Source of the DNA: Raphidiopsis brookii D9
GTDB lineage: Bacteria; Cyanobacteriota; Cyanobacteriia; Cyanobacteriales; Nostocaceae
NCBI GenBank assembly: GCA_000175855.1
Contig: ACYB01000038.1
Span: 90,001 to 122,000, forward strand
DNA: 32,000 nt
Direction of reading: 5' to 3'
Shown here: piece by piece, positions 4,467-10,935 of the stretch
Position numbering within the stretch: the first letter of the stretch is position 1
Layout of the letters: every line of letters starts with the position of its first letter
Notes under the pieces: model-generated
What the model was told of the DNA's origin: nothing
What the model saw: only the letters and a program-made list of their open reading frames with translations
The model's database searches: none
Program-made: the position numbers and the translations under genes

Positions 4467-6305
4467 TTATCTACTACTGATCGGTTTTGGAGTTGGTATG
4501 GGGTTGTGGGTTTGACCCGGTAAAACCTGTTGGGCAACCTTTTGAGCTGCTTGTTTAAACAATGGTTCTAGTTTATCTTGCCAGTATTTAATATTAGGCA
4601 ACTTTTCTGGTTCGTTGCGATAGGCCAAGACCTTTTCCCATTGTCCGCTGTCAACAGCACGATTAATTTCATTAGCCAAAGTCTCAGCTTTGGCCCAGTC
4701 TTGTTGCCATTGGTCAATTATCTTCAATTGCTGACCATTAGAAGTGGTTTTTTGGGGAGCGGATTTCAGTTGAGCTATTGCTCCCTTCACATCCCCTGAC
4801 TGGAATTTTTGTCGAGCTTGTAGAACGATTGGATCTTGAGACTCTGTATCAGCAGATTGAGACAAGAATGGGGATGGAGGGGTAGTAGGAGATAACTGAG
4901 GTTTAGGCACTATTCGAGATGTAATTAAAGGTAAATCATCAACGATTTGAAGAGAAACACCCTGGTCTCGCAGACAAGAGACCCATTGGTCATTGTTAGT
5001 AATCACATCGGAATGAGCCCAGGCCAAACGACCAGATTTAAGTTTAACTTCTATCCAACCACGCTTAGTTCTTTTTCCGGTAACAATAAACTCACTAGGA
5101 TCACCAATACTCTTTAAAATATTATCAGAACTAATGGCGCTAGGTTGGGAGCGCACATTAGAATTTGGTGCTACCATGGCCAAACAATTTTCTGGAGATG
5201 TGCCATTCTTATCCTTCCAATTAGCAGTCAAGGTTTGAATGTTGGGATATAAATTGCCTACTAAAGCTGCTGCACCACCGACCAAAAATAAACCAATTAC
5301 CAGTGGTAAGAGATCTGGTTTTTGTTCCTGTTTAGGAGCAGATACTAGGGGAGGAGTGTGAACAGGTGCCAAAGCTAAGGTAGGTTGTGGAAACAATGAA
5401 ACAGATTGATTATGGGCTTTTATGGGTAATTTTTTTCCACTGGGTGTGGGAGATAGGGAGTAACCGAAGGATTTAGCATATTCTTTTATAAACTCTCGAC
5501 AAACTTCTAATACTTCTGTTGCCGTTTGATAACGTTCCTTGAAGTGATAACGCACCATTTTGCTGAGAATTTCCCCCAGACGGGAATTGACAGGTCGAAA
5601 ATGTTGCCAGAGAATTTCACCGGTATCCGGATCCTCTGGAAACTGATTAGCAGCTATTCCTGTTAAAGCTTGAATAGCAATGATACCCAAAGCATAAATA
5701 TCACTACTTGGGCGAGGTTTACCCTGTCCTTGCTCAGTAGGCATATAACCAGGAGTGCCAACAATTATAGTGGGATTTAATTGATGTTCTGAAAGAACAG
5801 AAGGACAACGTACTTGTTTGACAGCTCCAAAATCCACAAGCACCAGTTTGTAATCATCCACACGACGAATCAGATTGTCAGGTTTTATATCCCGGTGAAT
5901 CACCCCCTGCTGATGGACAAATTCCAAAACTTCTAAGATTTCCAAGAGGAATTGTATGACTTGGTTTTCACCCCATGGTTGTCCGGGTATAAGTTCCATT
6001 GTCAGGGTATGACCATCAATGTATTCCTGAACCAGGAAAAATTCCTGATTTTCATCAAAATAAGCCAGTAACCGAGGTATTTGATCATGATTACCCAATT
6101 TTTCCAAGGTTTCAGCTTCATTATTAAACAGACGTTTAGCAGTTGTAAAAATATGCTTGTCATTACTAACCAGTTTTAGATGTTTAACAACACAAATAGG
6201 ATTACCAGGTCGCCGAGTATCTTGAGCGATGTAGGTTTGACTAAATCCCCCAGTTGCTAAAACACGCACAACTTTATATCTATGGTCTAGTAGTTTGCCT
6301 ATCAT
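4467..6305 (-). CDS. Serine/threonine protein kinase (Hanks type) with TM segment and extracytoplasmic SH3b-like region
   Basis: Kinase motifs: GGFSQTY (G-loop), VVKHLK, HRDIKPDNL, DFG, GTPGYMPTEQ. TM at LLPLVIGLFLVGGAAALVG. The following segment NVRSQPS...GWIEVKLKSGRLAWAHSDVI looks like a bacterial SH3 domain. The C-terminus is helical. Confidence 0.9.
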   Translation of the reverse strand: MIGKLLDHRYKVVRVLATGGFSQTYIAQDTRRPGNPICVVKHLKLVSNDKHIFTTAKRLFNNEAETLEKLGNHDQIPRLLAYFDENQEFFLVQEYIDGHTLTMELIPGQPWGENQVIQFLLEILEVLEFVHQQGVIHRDIKPDNLIRRVDDYKLVLVDFGAVKQVRCPSVLSEHQLNPTIIVGTPGYMPTEQGQGKPRPSSDIYALGIIAIQALTGIAANQFPEDPDTGEILWQHFRPVNSRLGEILSKMVRYHFKERYQTATEVLEVCREFIKEYAKSFGYSLSPTPSGKKLPIKAHNQSVSLFPQPTLALAPVHTPPLVSAPKQEQKPDLLPLVIGLFLVGGAAALVGNLYPNIQTLTANWKDKNGTSPENCLAMVAPNSNVRSQPSAISSDNILKSIGDPSEFIVTGKRTKRGWIEVKLKSGRLAWAHSDVITNNDQWVSCLRDQGVSLQIVDDLPLITSRIVPKPQLSPTTPPSPFLSQSADTESQDPIVLQARQKFQSGDVKGAIAQLKSAPQKTTSNGQQLKIIDQWQQDWAKAETLANEINRAVDSGQWEKVLAYRNEPEKLPNIKYWQDKLEPLFKQAAQKVAQQVLPGQTHNPIPTPKPISSR

Positions 6306-6483: not shown

Positions 6484-6972
6484 ATGCCACCTAATATCCC
6501 CAATTCTACTATATGGCAACAAGCGGAAATTCTCATGCAACCAGCTTTTATCCGCATTGTTGATAATATTCGTAAACATCTAGATATATCCAAGTGGAAA
6601 GGAAGTTACCACGATGTACTGATTTGGCCAGCAGGTACAACGGATGGAACTAAATCTATTGTGATCCAGTTATTGGAGGATTCGAAAAACGCCACAGCGG
6701 AAGATTTACTAGCTATTAAGCAAAAACTGGCTCTTTTACCCATCCCCCATCCGGGATATCATTTGCGTTTGCAATATCAAGAACAGGTGGTGAATATGGA
6801 TTTGTGGGATTTATGTTATCAGGTTTGTTTTGTGGATTATAGTCCTGAAAATGTCCTAGTTGACATTGATACTAATTTATTAGATGAATTTGGGGAGGTA
6901 GATTGGCAATATTTAGAGAGTAAGACCAAGGGGTTAGTGCAAAGAATTTTTGATAACCTAATAGAAAGTTGA
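6484..6972 (+). CDS. Conserved cyanobacterial hypothetical protein
   Basis: 162-aa ORF. The N-terminus WQQAEILMQPAFIRIVDNIRK and the segment PGYHLRL...WDLCYQVCF resemble a conserved cyanobacterial protein of unknown function that I remember. No domain name is asserted. Confidence 0.55.
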   Translation: MPPNIPNSTIWQQAEILMQPAFIRIVDNIRKHLDISKWKGSYHDVLIWPAGTTDGTKSIVIQLLEDSKNATAEDLLAIKQKLALLPIPHPGYHLRLQYQEQVVNMDLWDLCYQVCFVDYSPENVLVDIDTNLLDEFGEVDWQYLESKTKGLVQRIFDNLIES

Positions 6973-7218
6973 CTCTCCCCCACGCACAGTGTCCAGGTAG
7001 TGCATTGACTGTTATAGCTTTTTTAGTATCCCTACAGCATAGTCCCAAATACTAATGTAGGGGATATACACATACACAATAGTTCACCGGTTCTCAGCGA
7101 TTTTTTCCATGCTCCGGTTTGGGTAATTAATGACTGGTTCACAATTTGTTTGGTTCAGCTTGCATGAAAATCCCCGTTGTGCATAAAATTACAATGAACC
7201 TAATTGGGAATTTCACAA

Positions 7219-8460
7219 ATGTGGCAAGTAATAAAAGACATAATTGAAAAATTGCAAAGTTGGTGGGGTGGATTGAGAGATCATATTTTCGGGAAAGAAC
7301 CAGATATTATAGATGATGGTGGTGATGGGGACGGAGAGGAATCCGAAACAGGAGGTTCTGGAGAAAAAATTCCAATAATCGACGACTTCGATTATGGCCC
7401 TATTATTGATCGTCTTCCTCCAACAAAGATCTTCCCGAAAGAAATTTTATTTGAGCATCCCAGTGATAAAATTGATTCGCTCCAGAAAAAAGTTTTAGAA
7501 ATTTTATTTTCTCGATTCAACTTATCAGCAAAAGAGGGTGATAATTATGTTGCCTATTTTCCGTCTCGGTTGCTTTCTTATATTAAACAAAAAGATGCCT
7601 TTTTTGCCTTTAGGCAATTTCTTAATGACATCGGCACAACACCCGATGAAGTTTTTAAAAACCGAGAAATAGCAAATTTTGTCAAAGAGGCAATTTTGGG
7701 GCTTTATGAAGCTGATGTCAACCGTTGGGATACTCCCCTTTCTACTGAACCTCTGTATCAAAAACTAAAACAATCCATTAATTGCCATAACTTAGATGAC
7801 TTTATTAACCTGCTAAATAAACTGGAAAAATTTGCCATTCTTGCCCACCAAATAGAAAGATTGATCGGTAAAATTCCCTTTCACGAGTTTGACCAATTTT
7901 CCCAGGAAGTAAAATCTCAATTAAAAGAATGGCATACTATACCGGAAAAAACTGTTAATCAGTGGAAGAATTCACTGAACAAATATGAAAGCCAATCTAC
8001 AAATTACCAAAATCTTTGTAAGCAAATTTCTCAAGATTTTCTGCGAGTAGAATCATTGTCCCTAACATCGGAACAAACTATCGTTATTGAATATTTATTA
8101 AAGGAAGTAGAGCAACTTAAAAAACTACTGCAAGTTGGACCAGTTGAACTCGATGATGGGATAGAACAACTGGAAATTTTAGCCGATGAAATCAAGGGAT
8201 TTGTTGATGAAGTTTCATATCGTCATAGAGAGGCCGAAAGTTCGAGAACAGAAGATGTTCCACCCAAAAATAATAAATTATCCCTGGATGAGGCATTAAT
8301 ACTACTCAGTCTAACCCTAGAAACACTCACACTCCAATCACTCAAAACATCACGCAATAGATATGCCAGAATTCATCACCCTGATATAGGTGGAGATGAA
8401 AAAATGATGAAAAAAATTAATCAGGCCTACGAAATCTTGAAGGAGTACTTAGAAATCTGA
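7219..8460 (+). CDS. J-domain (DnaJ-like) protein with a long helical N-terminal region (cassette gene 1)
   Basis: C-terminal J domain with an intact HPD loop: LDEALILLSL...LKTSRNRYARIHHPDIGGDEKMMKKINQAYEILKEYL. Acidic DDGGDGDGEESETGGSGE stretch near the N-terminus. No TM segment. ATG at 7219 is preferred over the TTG at 7204. Confidence 0.75.
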   Translation: MWQVIKDIIEKLQSWWGGLRDHIFGKEPDIIDDGGDGDGEESETGGSGEKIPIIDDFDYGPIIDRLPPTKIFPKEILFEHPSDKIDSLQKKVLEILFSRFNLSAKEGDNYVAYFPSRLLSYIKQKDAFFAFRQFLNDIGTTPDEVFKNREIANFVKEAILGLYEADVNRWDTPLSTEPLYQKLKQSINCHNLDDFINLLNKLEKFAILAHQIERLIGKIPFHEFDQFSQEVKSQLKEWHTIPEKTVNQWKNSLNKYESQSTNYQNLCKQISQDFLRVESLSLTSEQTIVIEYLLKEVEQLKKLLQVGPVELDDGIEQLEILADEIKGFVDEVSYRHREAESSRTEDVPPKNNKLSLDEALILLSLTLETLTLQSLKTSRNRYARIHHPDIGGDEKMMKKINQAYEILKEYLEI

Positions 8461-8594: not shown

Positions 8595-9344
8595 ATGCGC
8601 CAGGAACCGATTAAAAATCCTCCGGATCATCTCAAGACTCAGGATCACCAGTCACTGAAACCACAACGCGAACTGAGAAATTATGATGATCTAATCAAAC
8701 AATATGCTAAGCCAACCCGAATTATAGGTCTGGTAGATGCAACGGGTTCAATGAAACCATTGTGGGACAAAACAGTACAGAGTATTCAAGAACTGATCCG
8801 TCGAATCCTGGAAACGGGAAAAATTGAGCTTTCTTGGGTTGCTTACCGAGATTATTGCGATCATCACAGAATTATTGAACAAAGTAATTGGAGCGACTCG
8901 GTTGAATATCTCAAAACCTTTATGGCAAAAATCGTCTGTAATGGTGGTGGAGACTTTCCTGAAGCTGTGGAAAAAGCCTTAGAGGTTGCAATTAATGAGT
9001 CTGAGGTTTCTAGGGTTATCCTCATTGGTGATGCACCTCCTCATGCGGATAAAGATTACCGAAGTAAGGCAATTCAACTAGGGAAACTTAACAGGCCTGT
9101 TTTTAGCTTTGTTGTTGGCAATCACACCGACACGAAAAGAACCTTCGGAGAAATTTCAGATCTTTCGCGTGGAGTTTCTTTTAACCTAGAAAATGAGGAT
9201 GATATTTTGGATTTAATTGCAGTTACTGTTATAGATCAAATTGGGGGTCAAAAGTCTTTAGGTAAATATTTAGATGCTTATGGCTCTAAGTTATCTCCCA
9301 GCGTCAAAAACTTTATTCAACAACTTCCTCCAAGCAAAAAGTAG
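8595..9344 (+). CDS. von Willebrand factor type A (vWA) domain protein (cassette gene 2)
   Basis: MIDAS-type pattern IIGLVDATGSM ... WVAYRDY ... NGGGDFPEAVEKAL ... RVILIGDAPPH. 249 aa, no signal peptide or TM segment. Confidence 0.8.
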   Translation: MRQEPIKNPPDHLKTQDHQSLKPQRELRNYDDLIKQYAKPTRIIGLVDATGSMKPLWDKTVQSIQELIRRILETGKIELSWVAYRDYCDHHRIIEQSNWSDSVEYLKTFMAKIVCNGGGDFPEAVEKALEVAINESEVSRVILIGDAPPHADKDYRSKAIQLGKLNRPVFSFVVGNHTDTKRTFGEISDLSRGVSFNLENEDDILDLIAVTVIDQIGGQKSLGKYLDAYGSKLSPSVKNFIQQLPPSKK

Positions 9345-9354
9345 AAAGCAGATT

Positions 9355-10308
9355 ATGAGCTTGATCAAAATCTTTAAAATAGTCTATTTAGTTGGCATAG
9401 TTTTGTCGGGAGTGTTGACATTTGTTTCCTCTGACAAGAACAATACCGAAATTAGTAAATTAGTCTGGTTAGTTGGTGTGAGTCATGTTTTCGTACTAGC
9501 CATGATAGGTTTTAGGATGGAAAGATCTAAAGATAAAGCTGCTGCTGGACTGAGAGTACAGACATCAGGTTATCTGCATACGTTGATAGGATTCAGTGGT
9601 GCTTTATTTCAACTAGATCCCCAAAATTTATTGGCAACCATTGTGGTTCCTTTAAGTTACGCCCTATTCACCAGTATTATCGGTTGGTTTTTTGGTGGAG
9701 AATTAGTAAATGAATTCGATGGGGGAGGAGCGGTAGATATTGGCAATGAAGGAGAGCGAATTGCCCAAGAGTTTCACATTTTTGCGGAGAACCTTGGCCG
9801 AGAATTTCAGAGTTTTGCAGATAGCTTGAGTGCAATTCACGAGCAATACAGTCGCAAAATAGAAGATGCTTCAAACTCTTTTGAAAGTCAGCTACAAAAA
9901 GTAGGAGCAGCTTATAAAGGAATGGTGGATACACAGGAAGTTCAATTTGATAGATTGAGCAAAAAACAGCTTGATTTATTGGCTCAATTAGAAGATTATC
10001 AAAAAAGGTTCATAGATAGTCAGAATAGCTGTTACGGTAAAATGGATAATGCTATTCAGGAGTCTATTAATTCATCGGATAAATTAAACGCCAGTGTTGA
10101 TGCTTTGACTAGTGCTTTATCCACAAAGGAACTATTCTCCATAACTAGCAATTTTGTATACCTAAGTGAACAGACAAAAGTAGCATCAGATAATATGGAA
10201 CAAGTGGCAACTACATCTAAAAATGTCGCTAAATACTTGGAGGAGAGTAAAATTTTAATCGACCAACTGGAAAAGTTATTAAGTTCAATTAACTCTTATC
10301 GGAGGTAA
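9355..10308 (+). CDS. Four-TM membrane protein, MotA/TolQ/ExbB/ZorA-like by eye, with a C-terminal coiled-coil tail of about 170 aa (cassette gene 3)
   Basis: ATG at 9355 lies 10 nt after the vWA stop. The ORF-track start at 9274 would overlap gene 2. TM helices: IVYLVGIVLSGVLTFV, LVWLVGVSHVFVLAMIGF, GYLHTLIGFSGALFQL, IVVPLSYALFTSIIGWFFGG. The last hairpin resembles the GxLGTxxG / ALxxTxxG channel signature. The remainder is heptad-like helical sequence. The membrane-plus-tail layout is seen directly; the MotA-family call is inferred. Confidence 0.55.
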   Translation: MSLIKIFKIVYLVGIVLSGVLTFVSSDKNNTEISKLVWLVGVSHVFVLAMIGFRMERSKDKAAAGLRVQTSGYLHTLIGFSGALFQLDPQNLLATIVVPLSYALFTSIIGWFFGGELVNEFDGGGAVDIGNEGERIAQEFHIFAENLGREFQSFADSLSAIHEQYSRKIEDASNSFESQLQKVGAAYKGMVDTQEVQFDRLSKKQLDLLAQLEDYQKRFIDSQNSCYGKMDNAIQESINSSDKLNASVDALTSALSTKELFSITSNFVYLSEQTKVASDNMEQVATTSKNVAKYLEESKILIDQLEKLLSSINSYRR

Positions 10309-10314
10309 AGACTA

Positions 10315-10935
10315 ATGCAAATTAGAAGCAATATGGAACAAGCAGAGATTTTTGTTTTTATCGCTTCCTTCTTTCTGATTGCTCTTGGTTTTAAGGAACC
10401 AGATGGGCCAGTCAAAAAGCCGTCTGAACATCCACCAATCATTCTATTTCCTGAATCTTCCAGGTATAACTTTCGTTCAGGTCGTGCTGAATTAAGTTCG
10501 GAATTTAGGGATCATATTCGCACTAAACTGAAACCAAAAATTTTGGAAGTTGTCAAACAATACAAGGATATTGACGCTATTGAGGTGATTGGTCATACTG
10601 ATGGCAGGCCAATTAATAGTGTTGAACAATCCATCTCAAGTCACAATAGCAATTTGGATAATAATTTAGAGAGGGTTAATCTAGGCAAATTATCTGTATC
10701 CAGATTGCAACCTGGCTCTAATACCGATTTAGGTATTATGAGAGCTTTGGCTGTTGTCCAGGAACTGAAACAATCCGGAGGGGGAATTTCAAAACTCAAT
10801 CTCCGTGCCTATTCTGCAGGACAGTTATTATTGGAAGATGGTCAACCAGCACCAATAGATACAACAGATAACCCTGAAAGAAGACGAATAGAAATTCGTT
10901 TCACAAAATTGGGTCGTACTCAGGTTTTTAAATAG
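10315..10935 (+). CDS. OmpA/MotB-family peptidoglycan-binding protein with N-terminal TM anchor (cassette gene 4)
   Basis: N-terminal TM IFVFIASFFLIALGF. OmpA-like domain: FRSGRAEL..., IEVIGHTDG, NTDLGIMRALAVVQEL, RAYSAGQ, NPERRRIEIRF. ATG at 10315 lies 6 nt after the gene 3 stop, with GGAGG at 10301-10305. Confidence 0.8.
   Translation: MQIRSNMEQAEIFVFIASFFLIALGFKEPDGPVKKPSEHPPIILFPESSRYNFRSGRAELSSEFRDHIRTKLKPKILEVVKQYKDIDAIEVIGHTDGRPINSVEQSISSHNSNLDNNLERVNLGKLSVSRLQPGSNTDLGIMRALAVVQELKQSGGGISKLNLRAYSAGQLLLEDGQPAPIDTTDNPERRRIEIRFTKLGRTQVFK

Follow-up and report, generated by a model that had tools for sequence, protein, structure and literature searches.

A ZorAB-like membrane protein pair with glutamate at the transmembrane aspartate site in Raphidiopsis brookii D9 and its relatives

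We analyzed a 32,000-nucleotide stretch of the Raphidiopsis brookii D9 genome (assembly GCA_000175855.1, contig ACYB01000038.1, positions 90,001 to 122,000), hereafter the window, in which genes 1 to 4 form a head-to-tail row on the + strand. The subject of this study is the pair formed by genes 3 and 4, whose predicted products resemble the A and B subunits of MotAB/ExbBD/ZorAB-type complexes and in which a Glu takes the place of the canonical transmembrane Asp. Gene 3 (9355..10308, +), assigned from the open reading frame (ORF) and the homologue alignment, encodes an A subunit of 317 amino acids (aa), in which a membrane core of four helices is followed by a long helical tail predicted to be cytoplasmic. 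Gene 4 (10315..10935, +) encodes a B subunit of 206 aa, in which a short N-terminus and one transmembrane helix are joined via a linker of 13 residues to a peptidoglycan-binding domain of OmpA/MotB type. Both ORFs lie where a preliminary description of the DNA, made by reading the sequence, had placed them. While the longest ORF of gene 3 opens at 9274, the homologue alignment favors the ATG at 9355 (MSLIKIFKIVY...). The gap between the two genes is 6 nucleotides, and a GGAGG Shine-Dalgarno sequence lies 9 nucleotides 5' of the gene 4 start, within the last codons of gene 3.

The transmembrane helix of gene 4, delimited from the sequence and a hydropathy scan, comprises the 15 residues I12-F26 (10348..10392, +) and is about 3-4 residues shorter than in Asp-type relatives. 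In ZorB, this helix carries a conserved and essential Asp (D26, D24 or D21; PMC11946911, PMC11890865), and in 5:2 motors the transmembrane Asp of MotB, ExbD, TolR and ZorB is regarded as universal and essential to the mechanism (PMC11946911). In gene 4, as already noticed in the preliminary description, there is no Asp in or near the helix, and the only acidic residues close to it are E8 and E11. At the cytoplasmic end of the helix, Glu11 (codon 10345..10347, +) alone among the acidic residues is conserved, being invariant in every gene-3-type pair, and E8 is variable. Among non-redundant pairs, Glu was present in all 27 B subunits adjoining a gene-3-type gene, and Asp in all 42 B subunits adjoining a long ZorA-like gene in the cyanobacterial sister pairs, so that the Glu/Asp split is absolute in the sampled pairs. 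The FTDLMSNAF stretch of the Asp-type sister B subunits aligns residue for residue with SFSDLMSGL of ZorB (Asp24); in gene 4 and its close relatives, (K/M/E)-(Q/Y/F/K)-(A/S/G)-E-(I/V/L/M)-F stands in place of this stretch. The invariance in 27 of 27 pairs supports the earlier suggestion that E11 substitutes for the Asp. Considering that Asp-to-Glu mutants of MotB retain reduced motor function in three species and that Asp-to-Asn mutants are dead (PMC6663468), a Glu-based proton carrier would be chemically plausible by analogy.

The peptidoglycan-binding domain of gene 4 (10432..10908, +) was defined by invariant alignment columns, including GHTD96 and N136-x-x-L139-x-x-x-R143, and its C-terminal end lies at an invariant RRRIEIRF stretch. 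D96, N136, L139 and R143 are invariant, and the spacing of the N-x-x-L-x-x-x-R motif is that of ZorB N152/L155/R159, which are needed for peptidoglycan binding (PMC11946911). Between GHTDG and the helix bearing this motif, residues 98-134 (10606..10716, +) form an insertion in which N113-L114-D115 and E119 are invariant. Such an insertion had been recognized before at about 35 aa; it is real, but its net size is about 30 aa, as D96 and N136 are separated by 39 residues versus about 9 in PomB. The insertion is common to the whole B-subunit family (invariant NLD...E), and the subgroup of the window has 7 additional residues. Gene 4 alone gave weak matches to OmpA (4e-4), the PADLOC ZorB model (1.4e-5), and TssL and MotB domains. 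Alignment to PF00691, which had been proposed as a check, thus yielded a match, though a weak one that stops at residue 109; the MotB plug family PF13677, proposed likewise, was unmatched in gene 4. The gene 4 product is 100% identical to a protein recorded for R. brookii D9. We collected 701 relatives of gene 4, most of them from other cyanobacteria. The profile of this family matched, among solved structures, the type I ZorB chain 8vvn_B via the transmembrane helix (E = 6.6e-5), followed by PomB/MotB domains. Gene 4 is also 40-50% identical (E ~1e-32) to cyanobacterial Asp-type ZorB-like proteins which pair with true ZorA homologues. Judged by its sequence, the gene 4 product is a predicted ZorB/MotB-type protein.

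The membrane core of gene 3 covers residues 1-123 (9355..9723, +). AlphaFold2 modeled it as four helices (residues 3-28, 31-53, 58-85 and 92-122) with a pLDDT score (predicted local distance difference test) of 93 and a predicted template modeling score (pTM) of 0.86. The loop rich in Lys and Arg that had been described earlier is present as RMERSKDKAAAGLR at residues 54-67, and the positive-inside rule predicts on this basis a topology with both the N-terminus and the tail inside the cell. We considered whether helix 1 might be a cleaved signal peptide; this seems unlikely given the conservation of Y11 and G14 and the packing of the helix in the model, where its pLDDT is >90. Helix 3 carries the signature Q69-T-S-G-Y-L-H75-T76-L-I-G-F80 (9559..9594, +), invariant in the close family, which probably corresponds to the ion-filter helix (GxxGT) of MotA/ExbB/ZorA; a His or Tyr replaces the Gly preceding the filter Thr. 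Based on family conservation and the register of a profile alignment by hhalign, the helix 4 motif T106-S107-I-I-G-W-F-F-G-G-E116 (9670..9702, +) probably corresponds to the second polar Ser/Thr ring of ZorA/MotA. The two consecutive C-terminal transmembrane helices of gene 3 carry a conserved Thr (T76) and Thr/Ser (T106/S107), which align with Thr147 and Ser184 of ZorA, the residues that touch ZorB Asp26 (PMC11946911). In 133 family representatives, G72 was kept in 132, Y73 in 120, H75 in 97 (with Tyr in 23), T76 in 126, T106 and S107 in 120, G110 in 133, and H44 in 113. H44, Q69, T70, Y73, H75, T76, T106 and S107 are polar residues within transmembrane helices that are invariant in the close family. 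Pro-His replaces Thr106-Ser107 in 12 of the 133 representatives.

To place gene 3 among known families, we compared it at the level of sequence, profile and structure. A word-indexed search returned 31 relatives, and an exhaustive HMMER search of 1.84 billion representative proteins with the core profile returned 160 clusters at 50% identity, whose members have 230-530 aa and include one from Calditrichota. Gene 3 itself matched no Pfam family. MotA_ExbB matches below the gathering score were found in 15 of 145 family representatives (E <= 0.1; best 1.8e-4), and those checked run through the motif-bearing helices; in P0265, the match reached 15.8 bits versus a cutoff of 22.9 and covered residues 84-137. 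Another member, P0275, matches a ZorA2 model (6e-5) over a stretch that begins in the core and continues into the tail. When the 133-sequence gene 3 core was aligned by hhalign with the core of cyanobacterial ZorA-like proteins, GYLHTLIGF paired with GLLGTFLGI and PLxxALxTSIIGW with GMxIAFxTSLxGL (P = 0.0023). In a Foldseek search of 350,542 PDB chains, the sole tight superposition was with 8vvi_C, the resolved core (residues ~1-100) of the type II ZorA of Sulfuricurvum kujiense (PMC11890865), with a root mean square deviation of 2.8 Å over 91-95 columns and 21-22% identity. For the core and full-length models, the target-normalized TM-score of this match was 0.68-0.70 and its probability 0.97-0.98, but its E-value was 0.6-0.7. 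Since the hhalign and Foldseek results and the sub-threshold MotA_ExbB/ZorA2 matches agree, and since the partner homology and gene order point the same way, we regard membership of gene 3 in the MotA/ExbB/ZorA superfamily as probable, not proven. The similarity expected in the preliminary description is therefore likely from the tight superposition, but neither its E-value nor any hidden Markov model (HMM) match of gene 3 to MotA_ExbB was significant. Gene 3 represents a rare family of its own, without a model in Pfam or PADLOC and with members annotated as hypothetical.

The cytoplasmic tail of gene 3 spans residues 132-317 (9748..10305, +), modeled by AlphaFold2 as helices 132-254 and 260-316. 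In the full-length model, a disordered Gly-rich linker (residues 123-131) precedes the tail helices, which have pLDDT values of about 80. Because the tail of about 185 aa is free of proline and its hydrophobic period of 3.6 residues was matched by 0 of 2000 shuffles, it is predicted to be a continuous amphipathic helix of helical-bundle type. These data agree with the earlier view of a channel-like transmembrane part followed by a continuous helical tail, except that the tail begins near residue 132 rather than 145 and is about 185 rather than 170 aa long. The middle section of the tail differs in length among homologues via insertions and repeats. The tail-tip motif V291-AKYLEESKILIDQLEKLLSSI-312 (10225..10290, +; Y294, L295, L301 and L308 invariant) is conserved family-wide even where the middle cannot be aligned, with the C-terminal ~25 residues following the pattern VAKYLxESxxLIxQLExLL, and occurs in stand-alone A-B pairs too. 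In ZorA, the tail tip is required for effector recruitment (PMC11946911). At the start of the tail, an 11-residue insertion, GERIAQEFHIF (9751..9783, +), is missing from 306-aa orthologues in the alignment; its resemblance to the downstream REFQSFADSL segment suggests a small tandem duplication. Gene 3 also matches the ZorA models of PADLOC (8.3e-5) and NCBIfam (1.8e-4) tail to tail, and the matches of most relatives are of the same kind. We discounted these matches as proof of homology because they lie mostly in the tails and because the models of SMC-like JetC and LmuB match as well. The full-length profile retrieved only chemoreceptors, apolipoproteins and designed coiled coils from the PDB, which we read as tail composition and not as informative on the core.

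In 33 of 36 related loci, the A gene is directly followed by the B gene, often with overlapping stop and start codons, and the other three loci end at contig edges; the A-B pair is the constant unit of these loci. Four arrangements were distinguished. In the first, which is cyanobacterial, A and B are preceded by a J-domain protein of gene 1 type, in some cases together with a small vWA protein (the window, L001, L087 and L089). In the second, a protein of 170-225 aa precedes the pair in 14 metagenome loci, four of them between gyrA and asd; these ORFs lie in loci of the L095-L121 series. In the third, a kinase and a large vWA protein lie upstream of the pair and vWA, PP2C and kinase genes downstream, in 7-8 loci resembling the TerY-P triad. 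In the fourth, the pair stands alone (L090 and L094). Kinases flank the pair in 10 loci, and the complete vWA/PP2C/kinase triad adjoins it in L027, L092, L093, L110, L114 and L120. The conserved domain of gene 1 (residues 93-246) is common to the 170-225 aa proteins directly upstream of gene 3 homologues (hhalign probability 95.4%, E = 1.8e-8). Because these proteins carry the gene 1 domain, a third component is kept in half of the loci, and the J domain is a cyanobacterial addition. The partner sets are modular and variable by lineage, and contain no Zorya effectors.

A second, paralogous four-gene block, composed of a J-domain protein, a VWA_4 protein, a gene-3-like and a gene-4-like protein, lies between era and dxs in Cylindrospermopsis raciborskii (L122:4276-8727, L123:4276-8556 and L124:3149-7465). 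Its gene-3-like protein has 312 or 367 aa depending on the strain, owing to internal tail repeats. As this block is paralogous and occupies another locus, we ruled out that the Cylindrospermopsis homologues, with 47-55% identity, are hypervariable alleles. Loci L091 and L119 are two pairs about 9 kb apart on contig CAJHXH010000180.1, with kinase and PP2C genes beside each and vWA genes in addition at L091. In the metagenome contig of L001 (1472-4211), three transposase genes (ISL3-like, IS66 and Y1) lie directly 5' of the J-domain/A/B block, and an IS1-like fragment adjoins the stand-alone pair in L094.

Among known systems, type II ZorAB, which is compact, comes closest to the pair in architecture. 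The core of type II ZorA measures about 100 aa and is followed by a tail of residues 100-378 in S. kujiense (378 aa in total) or 106-550 in Escherichia coli (PMC11890865), and gene 3 shares with the proteins of S. kujiense (PDB 8VVI) and E. coli ATCC 8739 a compact core of ~100-120 aa and a long helical tail. The statement in the preliminary description that ZorA proteins are roughly twice as long as gene 3 holds for type I, whereas type II is already compact; the term miniature was overstated, as gene 3 lies at the short end of the known range and does not define a new size class. Gene 4 resembles type II ZorB in its single transmembrane helix and in its peptidoglycan-binding domain with N-x-x-L-x-x-x-R, a domain that is dimerizable in ZorB, and the order of A then B is that of type II Zorya. 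The pair differs from type II ZorAB in having Glu instead of Asp21/24, GYL(H/Y)T instead of GxxGT, a putative extra N-terminal transmembrane helix in gene 3, a tail of about 185 rather than 270-445 aa, and a much shorter periplasmic stalk in gene 4. No ZorE HNH effector lies beside genes 3 and 4, and their HMM scores fall far under the Zorya family thresholds. For ZorC/D, ZorE and ZorF/G, no PADLOC Zorya model matched any neighbor, the neighbors being a J-domain protein, a vWA protein and a kinase.

Like MotAB and PomAB, the pair combines a four-transmembrane A subunit with an inside N-terminus and a B subunit with a transmembrane acid and an OmpA-like domain; unlike them, gene 3 has no large cytoplasmic loop or torque interface between the second and third transmembrane helices and has a long tail instead. 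The cyanobacteria that host the pair are presumably non-flagellated. GldLM/PorLM of gliding and type IX secretion is a precedent for a 5:2 motor with Glu as the protonatable residue. However, this Glu belongs to the pentameric GldL rather than to the central dimer, an OmpA-like domain is absent, and we detected no relation in sequence between GldLM and genes 3 and 4. TerY-P-like modules are stand-alone anti-phage systems proposed to act as phospho-signaling switches (PMC11090510). Genes for vWA, PP2C and kinase proteins, the components of the TerY-P triad, flank seven or eight gene-3/gene-4 loci, whereas the window has a vWA gene and a neighboring kinase but no PP2C among the flanking genes.

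The Asp-type sister proteins of gene 4 belong to a three-gene module which is widespread in cyanobacteria, occurring in about 50 loci (L002, L005 and L009-L086, for example L002:537-6675) of Nostocales, Pleurocapsales, Microcystis, Halothece, Thermosynechococcus and further groups. In this module, a Tubulin_2/FtsZl1 protein (~1050-1160 aa) is joined by a true ZorA homologue (480-820 aa) and a ZorB-like protein of Asp type. The B subunits of this module are 40-50% identical to gene 4 and share a domain insertion of ~23-30 aa, and the order of A then B is the same. In contrast to the pair in the window, the A subunits of the module have 480-820 aa, three transmembrane helices and GLLGTF, and match solved ZorA; they carry the canonical LPNLLLxxGLLGTFxGI helix, and a Halothece example matches the solved E. 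coli ZorA with 5.6e-5. Its B subunits keep the Asp of FTDLMS in 42 of 42 cases, and its upstream tubulin-like gene of about 1080 aa has no equivalent in the window, where no FtsZ-like/Tubulin_2 ORF was found. vWA, kinase and OmpA genes have been noted beside FtsZl1 (Makarova & Koonin 2010, PMC2875224); MotA did not turn up when that paper was searched by term. In this module, a ZorAB-type motor may have a tubulin-like GTPase as its partner.

Based on these comparisons, we propose that the products of genes 3 and 4 are the A and B subunits of an inner-membrane complex of MotAB/ExbBD/ZorAB type, which is anchored to peptidoglycan and works as a Glu11-driven motor signaling to cytoplasmic partners, an assignment we hold with moderate confidence. 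A ring of gene 3 subunits would enclose the single transmembrane helix of gene 4, presumably as A5B2, and the periplasmic domain of gene 4 would bind peptidoglycan. Glu11 would be protonated and deprotonated in place of the canonical Asp, opposite Thr76, the Thr106/Ser107 ring and the family-specific His75 of gene 3. Ion flow could then turn or shift the A ring together with its helical cytoplasmic tail, whose conserved tip would relay the signal to cytoplasmic partners. In the window, these partners may be the gene 1 protein, whose J domain implies recruitment of Hsp70/DnaK, and the vWA protein, possibly joined by the neighboring kinase; in other lineages, they may be the vWA/PP2C/kinase triad. 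We infer the A5B2 stoichiometry, ion flow, rotation and biological role. By analogy, a role in an envelope-triggered conflict or stress response or in envelope surveillance seems most likely, and the housekeeping contexts and empty plasmid and phage searches call for caution on this role. A more specific version is possible but doubtful, namely that the pair is a functional 5:2 rotary motor with a Glu-His (or Glu-Tyr) relay serving as the sensor core of a modular Zorya-like envelope-surveillance or anti-phage system, whose outputs would be, instead of nucleases, recruitment of Hsp70 via a J-domain partner in cyanobacteria and, elsewhere, a phospho-switch made of vWA, PP2C and kinase proteins.

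Several observations weigh against the proposed motor. The canonical Asp is missing from gene 4, and the linker between its transmembrane helix and peptidoglycan-binding domain has only ~13 residues and no plug. The bulky His or Tyr replaces a helix-packing Gly before the filter Thr and is possibly incompatible with rotation around the B helices. Gene 3 gave no match to Pfam MotA_ExbB (PF01618) even at E <= 1, an alignment that had been suggested at the outset, and the core profile found no MotA, ExbB, TolQ or ZorA chain among PDB sequences. The hhalign probability was only 12.7%, the Foldseek E-values were 0.6-0.7, and the mostly tail-to-tail matches to ZorA models possibly reflect mere coiled-coil composition. 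The genes also sit among housekeeping genes with no evident defense island, and tblastn found nothing in plasmids with gene 3 or in phages with gene 4.

Since no core-only test was statistically significant and four-helix transmembrane bundles are common, gene 3 might be unrelated to MotA/ExbB/ZorA, being a lineage-specific four-transmembrane coiled-coil protein that lies beside an OmpA-like gene by chance and whose motif likeness is convergent or accidental. We regard this as improbable, as four independent weak signals converge on a single superfamily and on one set of two helices, the B partner has ZorB-like homologues whose own partners, encoded in the same order, are ZorA homologues, and 8vvi_C was the sole tight match among all chains searched. 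Alternatively, the pair could be a static peptidoglycan-tethered receptor or scaffold, in which gene 3 is a helical-bundle transducer anchored in the membrane, similar to the signaling domain of a chemoreceptor, and gene 4 a wall anchor. No ions would flow, and envelope deformation would travel through the tail to the partners with J domain, vWA domain or kinase activity. The absent Asp, the very short periplasmic linker, the kinase, PP2C and vWA neighbors suggestive of phospho-signaling, and a match of the full-length family profile to signaling domains of methyl-accepting chemotaxis proteins (E = 1.9e-5) would all fit such a receptor. However, the ZorA tail likewise resembles chemoreceptor signaling units, and yet ZorAB requires proton flow (PMC11946911). 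In addition, the modeled gene 3 core superposes on that of type II ZorA, and a passive anchor would not need the invariant polar residues H44, Y73, H75, T76, T106 and S107 in the membrane or a Glu at its edge, which makes a static receptor unlikely in our view. The same polar residues look channel-like, and together with the lack of an associated nuclease or other effector gene and the occurrence of the pair alone, next to an insertion sequence fragment, in L090 and L094, they could indicate a gated ion leak, that is, an effector of abortive-infection type in which the triggered A/B channel dissipates the membrane potential and the tail and partners are mere regulators. This would account for the stand-alone pairs, but a simple leak has no use for a long tail with a conserved tip, a conserved third gene is kept in half of the loci, and the pair occupies stable housekeeping sites in several lineages (gyrA-asd, era-dxs and STK-mgtE), so that a leak also seems improbable.

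In our literature searches, neither the gene 3 family nor a B subunit of Glu type was found described. Genes 3 and 4 and their relatives form a natural clade that always has Glu at the site of the 'universal' Asp, and this change is accompanied by a matching change in the A subunit, where a bulky His or Tyr lies by the filter Thr, whereas the sister clade in the same phylum keeps both Asp and Gly. The two clades thus lend themselves to a comparison of what ion-coupled rotation demands from the acidic residue and its environment. The family also broadens ZorAB-like sensor modules beyond nuclease-linked Zorya to J-domain, vWA, kinase and phosphatase partners, and to tubulin-like partners in the sister clade; the varied partners of both kinds of pair suggest that ZorAB-like motors are general envelope-to-cytoplasm transducers. 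Current genome annotation misses the family because it has no Pfam or PADLOC model and its members are labeled hypothetical.

Gene 1 (7204..8460, +) encodes a 418-aa protein with an acidic, Gly-rich N-terminus and a conserved domain for which Pfam has no model (residues 93-246; 7480-7941, +), followed by a helical section and, at the C-terminus, a J domain whose HPD motif lies at residues 392-394 (8377-8385, +). Its DnaJ match of 18.2 bits is under the Pfam cutoff, while that of the L001 orthologue, at 36.5 bits, is over it. Gene 2 (8595..9344, +) encodes a cytoplasmic vWA protein of 249 aa (VWA_4, E = 5e-9) with a MIDAS-like motif, D48-A-T-G-S52; it matched no PADLOC model and is kept in the four-gene block of L087 and L122-L124. 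With PADLOC models, we found no Zorya effector, nuclease or any PADLOC system among the window neighbors. A scan for promoters and terminators found sites no more frequently than in shuffled sequence and did not define an operon. A 162-aa ORF (6484-6972) sits between the kinase gene and gene 1; it gave no Pfam, NCBIfam or PADLOC match, and we dropped it as a component of the system since none of the related loci contains an equivalent. Farther out lie the housekeeping genes murB, trpA and mgtE, and further flanking ORFs, judged by eye, may be pyrB and pheT. The Ser/Thr protein kinase gene (4467..6305, -; 612 aa; Pkinase, E = 4e-32) is divergent from the row of genes 1-4. Its product may be an accessory of the pair; in the window this is indicated only by proximity, and elsewhere kinases recur beside the pair. 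The protein may be a sensor kinase that spans the membrane, given its predicted transmembrane segment, its long C-terminal region rich in Pro and Gln, and a weak match to SH3_3.

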